DNA of 40,000 nt from an uncultured Candidatus Peribacteria bacterium (lineage in GTDB: Bacteria > Patescibacteriota > Gracilibacteria > RBG-16-42-10): NCBI GenBank assembly GCA_964514565.1, contig CAZERA010000001.1, positions 552,080 to 592,079 on the forward strand, given 5' to 3'. Position 1 is the stretch's first letter. The number at the start of each line of letters is the position of its first letter. Positions 13,381-35,170 of this stretch are shown here, piece after piece. The translations under genes and the position numbers were made by a program. Below the pieces are notes generated by a model, which saw only the letters and a list, made by a program, of their open reading frames with translations, did no database searches and was not told the DNA's origin.

Positions 13381-13470
13381 CCTTCAGCCGAGCATCCTGA
13401 CCCCGCACAGCGGGCGGAAGGATCCTGCCCCATCTCTCGTTCCTTCTCCCTTCTTCCTCCTCCCTCACGC
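13381..13470. repeat. Left inverted repeat of the GIY-YIG cassette
   Basis: Contains the hairpin ATCCT-GA-CCCGC-ACA-GCGGG-CGGA-AGGAT (13394-13423) followed by a polypyrimidine tract (13427-13467). Its reverse complement aligns with 13946-14028. Confidence 0.7.
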
Positions 13471-13524: not shown

Positions 13525-13854
13525 TCAAAGCCCCATACTTTCTTTGTATTCCACGAAGTCAGTTTGCTCAACATATCCTAGGTCATACCACTTAGGATTC
13601 TCTTCTTCAATCAGTGCTACTTTTCTGGATCGTCGCCATCCTTTCAATTGCCGTTCGCGAGTGAATGCTTCTTTGCGGGTCTCATAAATCTCAAAGTAGA
13701 CTAGTTTAGTCACATGGTACCTATGACTGAAGCCTTTATTGCGATGTGCTTTGTGTTCTAAAGTCCGTCTACTCAAGCTATTAGTATGGCCGATATAAAT
13801 TACTTTGGATTGGCTAGCCATCATATAGACATAGAACTCTTGGTTGTTTTTCAT
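13525..13854 (-). CDS. GIY-YIG nuclease family protein (COG2827 / YhbQ-like, stand-alone)
   Basis: FYVYMMASQSKVIYIGHTNSLSRRTLEHK...RYHVTKLVYFEIYETRKEAFTRERQLKGWRRSRKVALIEEENPKW carries the GIY...YIG, R, E and KGW.R.KK motifs of this family. The C-terminal ~20 aa probably read through into flanking sequence. Confidence 0.85.
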   Translation of the reverse strand: MKNNQEFYVYMMASQSKVIYIGHTNSLSRRTLEHKAHRNKGFSHRYHVTKLVYFEIYETRKEAFTRERQLKGWRRSRKVALIEEENPKWYDLGYVEQTDFVEYKESMGL

Positions 13855-13945: not shown

Positions 13946-14028
13946 GCGTGGGAAAGGAATAAGGAGGGAAGGAGAGGGGCATGATCCTTCTCCCGCTTGT
14001 GCGGGATCAGGATGGCTCAGGGGAAGGA
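13946..14028. repeat. Right inverted repeat of the GIY-YIG cassette
   Basis: A polypurine tract (13946-13979) is followed by the hairpin ATCCT-TCT-CCCGC-TTGT-GCGGG-ATC-AGGAT (13984-14013). A further purine-rich module lies just outside, at 14029-14050. Confidence 0.7.
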
Positions 14029-16780: not shown

Positions 16781-16849
16781 GTGCGGAAGAAATTGTTGAT
16801 AAGTTGGGATAGTAGTTTTTTTAGTGAGAGAATACAAGTTTGAGCTTGT

Positions 16850-16970
16850 GAGGTAAAAAGTAAGAAGTAAGAGATAAAAAGTTTGTGAGCTGGGGGAGCG
16901 GTCACATCGACACTTGTCGAGACTTAGCCCATACACTTCTTACCTCTTCCATTTTACCTCTTACCCCTCT
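16850..16970. repeat. Composite palindrome 'B': GARGTAA heptamer array, GC hairpin core, inverted pyrimidine array
   Basis: Left arm: GAGGTAA AAAGTAA GAAGTAA GAGATAA (16850-16877). Core hairpin: TCGACA-CT-TGTCGA (16907-16920). Right arm: CTTCTTACCTCTTCCATTTTACCTCTTACCCCTC (16936-16969). It shares a 17-mer and an 11-mer with element C. Confidence 0.6.
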
Positions 16971-23079: not shown

Positions 23080-24234
23080 TTAAGACACATTATCAATAAT
23101 GGCTTGAGCCACTGTTTTAGCGATACGGGTATCCAAGACACTAGGAATAATAAATTCTGGGTTGAGTTCAGCATCGCTGACACAGCTAGCAATTGCTTTT
23201 GCTGCGGCTAGTTTGATGCGGTCATCTACTTTCTTGGTACGAGTAGCTAGTAACCCCTTGAATACACCAGGAAATACCAAGACATTGTTGATTTGATTGG
23301 GGAAATCACTGCGGCCTGTACCCACTATATACGCGCCAGCTGCTTTTGCTTCCTCAGGCATAATTTCTGGTACAGGATTGGCCATGGCAATAATAGCTGG
23401 TTTTGGAGCCATCATCTTTACTTGTTCTGGTTTGAGCGCACCAGCGACTGACAAACCAATAAATATGTTTGCTCCTTTCAATGCATCACTGAGAGTACCT
23501 GCACGCTTCTCTGGATTGGTTCGTTCTGCTACTTCTCGTTTTTCGTCATTGAGATCAGTGCGATCCAGACTAATGATACCTTTGGAATCACAGACAATAA
23601 TATCTTTGAAACCATAGCTAAGCAGTAATCTCGTAGTGCCCAGTCCGGCTGCACCGGCTCCATTTACTACAATCTTGATTTGGTCTGCTTTTTGACCAGT
23701 AATGCGGAGGATGTTAATTAGTCCAGCTAGCGTGACGATTGCCGTAGCATGTTGATCATCATGAAAGACGGGGATATCGAGACTCTCACTCAAGCGACGC
23801 TCGATTTCAAAACATTGTGGAGCTGCAATATCTTCTAAATTGATGCCACCAAAAGTAGGTGCAATCGCCATTACAGCTTGAATGATGCCCTCGGTGTCTT
23901 GGGTACTGAGCACAATAGGATATGCATCTACGCCGCCCAGTTCTTTGAACAAAATTGCTTTGCCTTCCATGACTGGTAGTGCACCATAAGGTCCGATATT
24001 ACCCAGTCCGAGCACGGCTGAACCATCTGATACCACCGCAATAGTATTGCCCTTGATGGTATAGTCGTAAGCTTCTTCAGGGTGATTGCCTAGATGAGAA
24101 GATACTGTGCCCACACCAGGAGTATAAGCAATACTGAGATCATTGCGCGTAAGCATAGGCCCCACTTTGCTATAAACGCCTAATTTCCCCTGGGCTTTTT
24201 TATGTTTCAAAAGTGACTCTTCGCCGTAGTTCAT
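23080..24234 (-). CDS. NAD(P)-dependent malic enzyme, short (~385 aa) form
   Basis: [47 protein letters not shown] and the dinucleotide-binding VVNGAGAAG are diagnostic of the short prokaryotic malic enzymes. Confidence 0.9.
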
Positions 24235-24269
24235 AGTTTTTTTCTTAGTGACGTTATTCTATACGCTTT

Positions 24270-24392
24270 GGAGGGAAAAAGTAAGAAGTAAGTGGTAAGA
24301 AATGTAAATGCTTGTTGTCCACTTGCGTGGAGGGCATGGTATTTCTCCCGCTAAAAGACTTTTTACCTCTTCCCTCTTACTTTTTACCTCCC
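24270..24392. repeat. Composite palindrome 'C', sister of element B, with a core related to the GIY-YIG inverted repeat
   Basis: Left arm 24270-24304 contains AAAAAGTAAGAAGTAAG, identical to 16855-16871. Core hairpin: TCCAC-TTGC-GTGGA (24318-24331). GGAGGGCATGGTATTTCTCCCGC (24329-24351) resembles 13971-13996. Right arm 24359-24392 contains TTACCTCTTCC, identical to 16940-16950. Confidence 0.6.
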
Positions 24393-24427
24393 ATCTAAGC
24401 TATGTTGTTGTCATCAACAACATCTCT

Positions 24428-25381
24428 ATGATTGATGTATTAACTGGTTCTGAGTTTGTGATGAATCGTGCTCAATCAGTAAGGATTGATCATGAGCGCT
24501 TAGCGCAAATAGCTGCTCAGTACAAAAGTGTGGAGAGTAAACATTGGTTATTAGAAGCACCTTTCAATCTTCAACAGCTTTCAGAGCCGGAAATTGTAAA
24601 CTTTTTGTTGCTCTTTTATGCTTTAATCTTTTGTTTTTGGGGAGAACCCAAATGGACGGTTGATTATCAGGATCAAAAATACGATGGATCATTTGGTTTA
24701 TTGATAGCACTTCGCAAAGCATATGAAAATGGCATTCCAATTTTGGACTGGGCCTACTGGCAAGGCATCTCTCAGGAGGAATTTAGCAGTGTACTGAGGG
24801 GAAATGTAATCATTCCGCTATTTGATGAACGCTTGGCTATTGTCCATGAAGTGGGCAGAATACTGATGGCAAAATATCAGGGGCAAGCAGCGCAGCTAAT
24901 TCAATCTTGTGGAAAAGATGCGCGTAAATTGTTGGAATGTCTCAGTAGTGATTTCCCTTCCTTTCGTGATACCGCACACTATGATGATCAAGAAATTGCT
25001 TTCTATAAAAGAGCGCAGCTATTCGTCGTAGATGTCTATCACTTTTTTGCTGGGAAAGGTCTGGGTGACCTCAGTCATATTGATAGTATTACTGCTCTGG
25101 CAGACTACAAAGTACCGCAAATTTTGAGGCATCTAGGCATTTTGGTTTATGCTGAAGACTTGGCTCACTTAGTAGATACGAAGCAGGAGATTGCTCATGA
25201 TTCACAACCAGAGATTGAGATCCGGGTAGCTAATATCTGGGCAGTAGAGCTGATGCGTCGTATTGTTTCTCAAAAACTCCCTATGGTTACTAGCACCGAG
25301 ATCAATGACTACTTTTGGTTACAAAGCCAAACTGCTCAAAATATGAGACCATATCATCGTAGTCGCACTATTTTTTACTAA
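24428..25381 (+). CDS. Queuosine salvage protein family (DUF2419 / QNG1-like)
   Basis: FCFWGEPKW, the AFYKRAQLFV context and ADYKVPQILRHLGILVY match the family's conserved ADY(R/K)VPQ.LR..G.L.Y block. Start taken at ATG 24428, because the track ATG at 24308 would translate element C. Confidence 0.7.
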   Translation: MIDVLTGSEFVMNRAQSVRIDHERLAQIAAQYKSVESKHWLLEAPFNLQQLSEPEIVNFLLLFYALIFCFWGEPKWTVDYQDQKYDGSFGLLIALRKAYENGIPILDWAYWQGISQEEFSSVLRGNVIIPLFDERLAIVHEVGRILMAKYQGQAAQLIQSCGKDARKLLECLSSDFPSFRDTAHYDDQEIAFYKRAQLFVVDVYHFFAGKGLGDLSHIDSITALADYKVPQILRHLGILVYAEDLAHLVDTKQEIAHDSQPEIEIRVANIWAVELMRRIVSQKLPMVTSTEINDYFWLQSQTAQNMRPYHRSRTIFY

Positions 25382-35016: not shown

Positions 35017-35170
35017 GTCAGAGGTACGATCCCGCCTCTGCGGGAAGAGATCAGAGATTTTTGGTGAGACCTGTTTTGGACTGCCCGTAAGGGCGTCATT
35101 CCAGCCCTGCACCAGCAGGGAGATGAATCTCAGTCAAACTGCAGCTGGGCCAAAAACGTCAGCCAATTAA
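35013..35170. repeat. Composite element 'E': shared 17-mer plus three GC hairpins between convergent genes
   Basis: TTAGGTCAGAGGTACGA (35013-35029) is identical to 4315-4331 and overlaps the TAG stop. Hairpins: TCCCGC-CTCT-GCGGGA (35030-35045), GCCC-GTAA-GGGC (35083-35094) and CCCTGC-ACCA-GCAGGG (35105-35120). Confidence 0.5.

Follow-up and report, generated by a model that had tools for sequence, protein, structure and literature searches.

A dispersed hairpin-plus-heptamer repeat, possibly carrying a fragment of a nuclease-associated hairpin, in a spacer of an uncultured Candidatus Peribacteria genome

Introduction

A palindrome that carries no gene occupies the spacer between a malic enzyme gene and a queuosine-salvage gene in the 40,000-nt stretch of DNA analyzed here (the window). 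Part of its core resembles one end of a cassette, elsewhere in the window, that encodes a small GIY-YIG nuclease. What kind of element is this palindrome, and does the resemblance reflect a common history? A sequence-only reading of the window had proposed that it does, linking palindromes built of heptamers (7-base repeat units) to the nuclease cassette, and had offered three descriptions of the element: footprint, landing pad or non-autonomous derivative.

Ssn proteins are small single-domain GIY-YIG nucleases that bind a hairpin in single-stranded DNA and cut upstream of it (PMC11893778). The hairpin recognized by Ssn nucleases is called the Ssn-related motif (SRM), and its Neisseria form is the SsnA target sequence, NTS (PMC11893778). 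Ssn genes are typically flanked by such hairpins, which are also dispersed in the genome (PMC11893778), and the authors likened them to REP/BIME repeats and RAYT transposases (Chenal et al., Nat Commun 2025, PMC11893778). By what means Ssn-type hairpins spread, and what role they have outside Neisseria, are questions raised in the same paper.

We compared the palindrome, here called element C, with the rest of its own genome (G000; 1.12 Mb, 7 contigs, 92.7% complete, GC 42%), with three genomes of the same genus (G001 to G003) and with more distant relatives. All of the relatives have genomes of about 1 Mb. No closer strain, of the kind that could show empty sites or an intact double hairpin, was found in the metagenome or genome collections, in which the best relative had 62% protein identity.

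Results

Anatomy of element C

Element C proved to have the parts that the sequence-only reading had placed in it, namely two arms, a hairpin and a core segment (Table 1). Both arms are period-7 arrays, and they are 84% complementary over 32 nt (positions 24270 to 24301 against 24360 to 24391). The core segment, GGAGGGCATGGTATTTCTCCCGC (24329 to 24351), follows the hairpin stem. The strand that would pair with its CCCGC half-stem, reported as missing, is indeed absent, there being no GCGGG anywhere in element C. Taken whole (135 nt), the element folds far above shuffled sequence (z of −4.3 as DNA and −4.7 as RNA), and as single-stranded DNA or as RNA it would form a long, imperfect stem (about 35 bp) on which the core is presented.

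Pfam matches bore out the identity of the two flanking genes. An open reading frame running from 24308 to 25381 traverses element C and would extend the queuosine-salvage protein by 40 N-terminal codons, an extension already suspected to be spurious. The true start is the ATG at 24428, judging from where the alignment of the orthologues begins and from a Pfam Q_salvage match that opens at residue 92. For annotation, repeats of this kind are thus a source of false N-terminal extensions. Rfam returned no family at gathering scores within the element, and the weak matches were long-hairpin look-alikes, so a known RNA family was rejected as its identity. No sigma-70-like promoter was found in or beside element C.

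Table 1. Features of element C, its neighbors, a sister copy and the ssnA cassette (window positions; +, − and. denote forward, reverse and no assigned strand)
Feature	Position	Strand	Evidence
Malic enzyme gene, left neighbor; start 29 nt from element C	23080..24234	−	Pfam PF00390, PF03949
Element C, full family A copy	24264..24395	.	nhmmer profile from 18 copies, E 1.5e-28 at G000:C1:576343-576474
Purine-rich arm, degenerate GTAAGAA-type heptamers	24270..24304	+	complementarity, period-7 array
Conserved left core, consensus TGTATGGGCT...TG, directly 5' of the hairpin	24303..24317	+	oriented alignment of 22 copies
Family hairpin TCCAC-TTGC-GTGGA	24318..24331	+	stem variants in other copies, TCCGC/GCGGA and TCCAT/ATGGA
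21-nt segment, 18/21 identical to the inner flank and 5' half-stem of the ssnA right hairpin	24332..24352	+	alignment
Pyrimidine-rich arm, TTCTTAC-type heptamers	24359..24392	+	complementarity, period-7 array
Queuosine-salvage gene, true start	24428..25381	+	orthologue alignment, Pfam Q_salvage
Sister copy of family A (element B of the sequence-only reading), divergent spacer	16843..16969	.	nhmmer E 6.8e-30 at C1:568922-569048
Left inverted repeat of the ssnA cassette, CATCCTGA-CCCGC-ACA-GCGGG-..AAGGATC	13381..13470	+	inverted-repeat score 67 over 90 nt
109-aa single-domain GIY-YIG gene, predicted Ssn-type nuclease	13525..13854	−	Pfam PF01541, E 4.4e-15
Right inverted repeat of the ssnA cassette; 13975-13995 is the partner of the element C 21-mer	13946..14027	+	sister-species profile, E 0.0023

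A family of oriented palindromes restricted to one genome

Element C belongs to a family of GTAAGAA-heptamer palindromes, which we named family A. A profile search of G000 found 22 to 23 full-length copies and about 30 partial ones. When 22 copies were aligned and oriented by the position of the hairpin, a single polarity ran throughout: a 5' CTTGGGAGG, the purine heptamer arm, TGTATGGGCT...TG, a 5-bp hairpin, a right core of 20 to 55 nt, and a pyrimidine arm ending in CCTCCCAAG or CCTCATCAG. The hairpin stem varies by paired changes on its two sides (TCCGC/GCGGA, TCCAT/ATGGA and TCCAC/GTGGA), with pairing kept. At the sister copy in the window (Table 1), the usual TCCGC hairpin is replaced at the same position by a different palindrome, TCGACACTTGTCGA.

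The arms are about 75 to 90% alike between copies. The right cores are unalignable between copies and unique in the genome, and the idea that they are assembled from other repeat modules was dropped for that reason, the core of element C excepted. The two arms of one element are no more complementary to each other than are the arms of different copies. The copies therefore descend from a master sequence, and for the same reason we rejected an origin by fold-back or as independently formed palindromes.

The family appears in 67 BLAST pieces in G000. One weak piece (E of about 0.003 to 0.007) was found in each of two same-genus genomes and none in the third. Consensus patterns searched against 185,579 species genomes found no related copy, and the sole exact 20-mer match among them lay in an unrelated Dehalococcoidia MAG, at chance level. 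By these searches, family A is lineage specific and restricted to G000. A cyanobacterial STRR or Nezha-type element, our first guess from the heptamers, was discarded because the host is a small-genome bacterium (1.1 Mb) whose class includes TGA-recoding relatives.

Eleven family A copies lie in tandem spacers, eight in divergent spacers and one in a convergent spacer, as expected from spacer lengths, with the genes being simple open reading frame calls. Because of this ratio, and because sigma-70-like sites were not found, we rejected a preference for promoter regions. The element ends commonly lie 30 to 60 nt from start codons.

One pair of family A arms encloses a gene. At G000:C1:78071-78581, arms lying 414 nt apart flank a 115-aa four-helix-bundle or 23S rRNA intervening-sequence gene (locus L067:631-978, minus strand; PF05635, E 4.8e-23; TIGR02436), so family A arms can bracket a small gene. 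The pair encloses no transposase, and it is the only clearly cargo-bearing pair. The sequence-only reading had looked to other genomic copies for an intact double hairpin or a GIY-YIG gene. Mixed copies that carry hairpins came to light (see below), and the sole clear cargo was the four-helix-bundle gene.

A 21-nt match to the ssnA cassette

The GIY-YIG gene, here called ssnA, lies 10.4 kb from element C between inverted repeats of about 85 nt each. A comparison by hand had counted 19 to 20 matches in 23 positions between the core of element C and the right repeat. Alignment gave much the same result, with 20 of 23 positions matching between GGAGGGCATGGTATTTCTCCCGC and GGAGAGGGGCATGATCCTTCTCCCGC (13971 to 13996) when one 3-nt gap was allowed. 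The best local alignment, GGGCATGGTATTTCTCCCGCT against GGGCATGATCCTTCTCCCGCT, was ungapped and matched at 18 of 21 positions (24332 to 24352 against 13975 to 13995). The matching 21-mer is located in the variable right core of family A.

The similarity might have been a chance product of low-complexity sequence, but it was better than chance both in shuffles and in a genome-wide 21-mer scan. None of 2,000 dinucleotide shuffles of the element C core reached the observed score against the two cassette ends (p<0.001), and 0.3% of random 261-nt genomic chunks did so. The cores of the other 17 family A copies scored at most 19, versus 27 for element C. Every 21-mer of the two cassette repeats was also scanned along both strands of the 1.12-Mb genome, and five non-self loci, element C among them, matched at 18 or more of 21 positions. 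Family A cores total about 1.15 kb, in which about 0.005 such matches would be expected, or about 0.06 on the assumption that every match is intergenic; with the number of comparisons allowed for, the p value of the link is about 0.005 to 0.06. The match exceeds chance but is one single short match, and we regard it as suggestive.

The three copies closest to element C (C1:366111, C1:402725 and C2:109108; 75 to 77% identity) have in common a block after the hairpin, GGAGGGCATGAT, that also matches the cassette repeat (GGGGCATGAT), and GGGCATGAT is common to these three siblings and the ssnA repeat. Sibling copies can be aligned to the TCT.C..GCT portion of the match, which may be ordinary family sequence. 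The next block, TTCTCCCGCT, is specific to element C; read from the sequences, it agrees with the cassette at 10 of 10 positions and with the nearest sibling at 6 of 10. The match also takes in 7 nt (GGGCATG) that lie outside the common hairpin pool.

A hairpin profile for which sister-species copies were the sole source did not detect element C even at E 100. It does find the ssnA right repeat, as well as many short TCCCGC hairpins. Since it does not reach element C, this independent long-hairpin profile was set aside as support.

Ssn-type hairpins and GIY-YIG genes

The GIY-YIG cassette is a predicted member of the published Ssn/SRM system (PMC11893778). Across the class, ssnA homologues have GTCATCC...GGATC hairpin flanks, and some of these, e.g., TGTCATCCCCGCGAAGGCGGGGATCC and GTCATCCTGAATTTAGTTCAGGATC, are close to NTS (CGTCATTCCCGCGMAVGCGGGAATC). 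The published degenerate SRM pattern, HGTCWYN(0-2)YYVSBRHN(0-5)WNVSBRGN(0-2)RNCYNB, gave one match in G000, in a gene region unrelated to element C, and none in element C or the ssnA flanks. None of 29 ssnA-homologue loci in the class was flanked by it on both sides (0/29). On the NTS-like flank TGTCATCCCCGCGAAGGCGGGGATCCAAA, the pattern fails only at the last position (loci L001-L030). Since it misses flanks of ssnA homologues that are clearly NTS-like, the pattern is too strict for these genomes, and we did not retain it as a discriminator. No complete oriented hairpin was found in element C, in which the inner flank and a 5' half-stem, TCCCGC, are present without GCGGGA. SsnA does act on split NTS substrates.

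In G000, the long hairpin occurs at the cassette only. Shorter TCCCGC-N3-5-GCGGGA hairpins number 33 and have CTCTGMT/AGGTCAG heptamer flanks; we named these family B. Several immediately follow tRNA genes, and the window has one family B hairpin at about 35031 to 35044 (G000:C1:587110). The 17 TCCGC-N3-5-GCGGA hairpins lie mostly within family A.

G000 encodes three GIY-YIG homologues, namely ssnA, a gene at C1:604570-604845 and a weak third one near C1:479108. A separate cognate hairpin for the second paralogue was rejected, since this gene lacks a flanking inverted repeat and the relatives have no distinct orthologue group for it. We consider it rather unlikely that the family A hairpin is the substrate of one of the three GIY-YIG proteins, although it is a putative candidate.

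At one syntenic spacer (G000:C1:604570-604845 and G001:C5:77720-78097), the two genomes each have a GIY-YIG (Ssn-like) gene, but the genes differ and lie on opposite strands. At the ssnA locus of the window, G001 has other open reading frames. These GIY-YIG genes thus do move between places over time.

Mixed copies and the sister genomes

If heptamer palindromes and cassette hairpins belong together, other copies might connect the two element types, and such copies were found. At G000:C1:278925-279005, the NTS-like hairpin TTCATCCCGCATGCGCGGGA adjoins a family A pyrimidine arm. At C3:53208, a family A purine arm and hairpin are followed by purine heptamers of the AAGGAAT type, which resemble those of the cassette. 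Family A arms also adjoin family B arms at C1:467163 and C3:23700.

Hairpins between heptamer arms occur in the sister genomes, too. An abundant repeat in G001 to G003, AATTCATCCTGAGCG..GAAGGATCC, has a longer form with an inner CCCGC hairpin, and it adjoins species-specific arrays of heptamers (GTTGARA in both G001 and G002; GTAAAAG, among others, in G003). On one 90.7-kb G001 contig, GTTGARA words lay on the outer side of 7 of the 13 left-type hairpins and TCTCAAC words on the outer side of 5 of the 11 right-type hairpins. The opposite polarity was never seen on the outer side of hairpins of that contig, in which the background was 0.13 words per 100 nt.

The spacer that houses element C has its own composite in G001, where a purine arm, a 224-nt gene-less element (L043:1151-1374) and a pyrimidine arm lie between the malic enzyme and queuosine-salvage genes. 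The 224-nt element is bounded by AATTCATCCTGAGCG and CGCTCAGGATGAATT and has Ssn-type hairpins at both ends. Its right end, GGGGCCCGATCCTTCGACTCCTCCCGCATGCGCGGGATCC, is the same hairpin type as the right repeat of the G000 cassette, and with respect to the flanking genes it points the same way as the 21-mer of element C. Both the 224-nt element and the purine arm are absent from G002 (L044) and from a metagenome relative (L074), which instead have the 8 nt CAATTCTT. Because G001 and G002 are each other's nearest relatives at this locus and only G001 is filled, the G001 element is probably a separate later insertion and not an orthologue of element C. The landing-pad description draws on this single filled/empty pair, from a sister species.

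Along some 90 kb of synteny (G000:C1:527000-617000 versus G001:C5; loci L069-L073), both species have repeats in several spacers, and the modules differ. At the locus of the window's sister copy, for example, G001 has GTCACCCTGAGCTCAGCCGAAGGGC with AATTCGC heptamers. This pattern suggests that fixed spacers may undergo repeated overwriting or concerted evolution.

Discussion

The preferred reading of element C

The genus has a modular repeat system in which Ssn-type GC-rich hairpins lie between species-specific heptamer arrays and modules are exchanged between families. This wider link between Ssn-type hairpins and heptamers is better supported than element C's own 21-nt match. As for element C itself, we lean, with some reserve, toward the view that it is a non-coding copy of a lineage-specific, dispersed palindromic spacer repeat of about 135 bp that forms part of this Ssn-associated hairpin-plus-heptamer system, the 21-mer being a hairpin fragment. 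The 21-mer would then be a remnant or a recombined fragment of a long Ssn-type hairpin module, and either decay or the recombination of short tracts among repeat modules might have left it in the variable core. Since no transposase of the four families searched was found (see below), we infer that hairpin-directed single-strand processing and recombination would account for the spread and maintenance of the repeat.

The proposed connection of the heptamer palindromes to the nuclease cassette is thus supported in part. The mixed copies and the hairpin-plus-arm composites of the sister species speak for it; a simple gene-less derivative of the cassette does not fit. Nor did element C arise from the ssnA cassette by deletion, since the arm order is opposite (purine-core-pyrimidine in element C; in the cassette, pyrimidine-hairpin-pyrimidine ... 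purine-hairpin-purine), the two have unlike heptamer words (GTAAGAA versus AAGGAGG) and only 21 nt are shared. Of the descriptions offered earlier, footprint, or mosaic fragment, suits the element better than non-autonomous derivative.

Alternative explanations

A serious rival, which we rate as distinctly less likely, joins a chance resemblance to an ordinary orphan MITE. The transposase would have been lost, left unassembled or supplied in trans, and the 21-mer would come from a shared pool of GC-rich hairpin halves. Element C does look like a MITE in being small (about 135 bp) and non-coding, with complementary arms as terminal inverted repeats, and the 22 to 23 full and some 30 partial copies make up a lineage-specific set of about 50 intergenic elements. 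No Y1 (PF01797), DDE_Tnp_1, IS110 or rve transposase, the four families searched, was found in the 92.7% complete genome, however, nor does any family A copy enclose a transposase, the one clear cargo pair holding the four-helix-bundle gene. The right cores, unalignable while the arms remain about 75 to 90% alike, are also unlike those of recently transposed MITEs. As to target-site duplication, the family A ends showed no consistent direct repeat, and the nearest genomes are too diverged to give an empty site. The chance half of this explanation draws on the abundance of TCCCGC half-stems, with 33 CCCGC-N3-5-GCGGG hairpins in the genome, on the failure of the sister-species profile to reach element C and on the part of the match that aligns with sibling copies. 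It must contend with the GGGCATG extension past the hairpin pool, with a genome in which only five loci score as well, and with the mosaic copies in G000 and the hairpin-plus-arm composites in the sister genomes.

Another alternative, possible and compatible with other readings, holds that the element is a selected cis-acting structure in which the hairpin fragment is incidental. It could be an RNase III stem, a transcript boundary or insulator, or an array for a protein that binds the 7-nt word. We hold this to be improbable. Since arms and hairpin were kept while the right core diverged beyond alignment, constraint or homogenization is suggested, and the predicted stems are strong and the element ends often close to start codons. 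RNase III-processed 23S rRNA intervening sequences offer an analogy, given the family A arms around the four-helix-bundle gene of intervening-sequence type. Yet spacer lengths alone suffice to predict the distribution over spacer types (11, 8 and 1), the element has neither a sigma-70-like promoter in or beside it nor an Rfam match, and the arms of an element do not covary with each other. In the sister species, moreover, other words and hairpins occupy these spacers, so a function tied to specific sequence would not be conserved.

We give similarly little weight to a bolder idea, in which the heptamer palindromes are non-autonomous partners of Ssn nucleases and hence a GIY-YIG counterpart of the RAYT/REPIN pair. 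The nuclease would nick the hairpin in single-stranded DNA, and repair and template switching would spread and homogenize arm-hairpin-arm units and generate the species-specific 7-nt arrays. If this were true, the same spacers would have been overwritten repeatedly in each species, and element C would be a hybrid caught between two hairpin generations.

Relation to known repeat systems

REP/BIME repeats, neisserial mosaic elements and Correia-type palindromes have long been known. Element C, read as a copy of a spacer repeat with an Ssn-type hairpin fragment, is not a new kind of element; it is a known kind of hairpin repeat, and its likeness to each of these systems is partial. Closest in their heptamers are the cyanobacterial STRR and the Beggiatoaceae TAACTGA repeats (PMC4679880), compared here by description only. 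There, species-specific intergenic 7-nt words recur three to five times in direct arrays that, unlike family A, have neither a central hairpin nor an inverted partner.

The neisserial mosaic elements (dRS3/NTS plus RS blocks) resemble the present system in that spacers are filled with modules shuffled between loci, and the Correia element does so as a palindrome of about 100 to 150 bp near gene starts that folds into a long stem. They differ in that their sequences are not similar to the repeats here, for which neither a TA duplication nor an IHF site is evident, and the heptamer periodicity is specific to the present lineage. REP/BIME repeats and REPINs with their RAYT (Y1) transposases share with it short dispersed spacer hairpins that combine in mosaic or inverted doublets, a nuclease gene that is present once and bracketed by those hairpins, and the lack of a classical transposon structure. 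In G000, by contrast, no Y1 transposase (PF01797) was found and the candidate enzyme is a GIY-YIG protein; the arms are 7-nt tandem arrays rather than REP stems, and the spacer between them is unique to each copy.

The nearest relative is the Ssn and NTS/SRM system, typified by SsnA of Neisseria meningitidis. Both have a single-domain GIY-YIG gene of about 100 aa between inverted hairpins, and GC-rich hairpins dispersed in spacers, each oriented by a conserved 5' flank. Element C departs from this in having half of the long hairpin only, and both the family A hairpin (TCCGC-N4-GCGGA) and the ssnA flanks fail the published pattern. The heptamer-array arms and the palindromic composite layout do not feature in the published description.

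New here is how family A is built, with arms of heptamers, a hairpin of fixed orientation whose stem varies by paired changes, and a right core that no two copies have in common. Also new are the confinement of family A to a single species, element C as a hybrid copy, and a composite at a filled/empty site in a sister species. With regard to how Ssn-type hairpins spread, this genus of roughly 1-Mb genomes is a compact natural test bed, with three Ssn-like genes and several heptamer-embedded hairpin families in G000, one filled/empty site in a sister species, and differing modules at the same spacers. Element C, as a hybrid copy, would physically join two of the module types.
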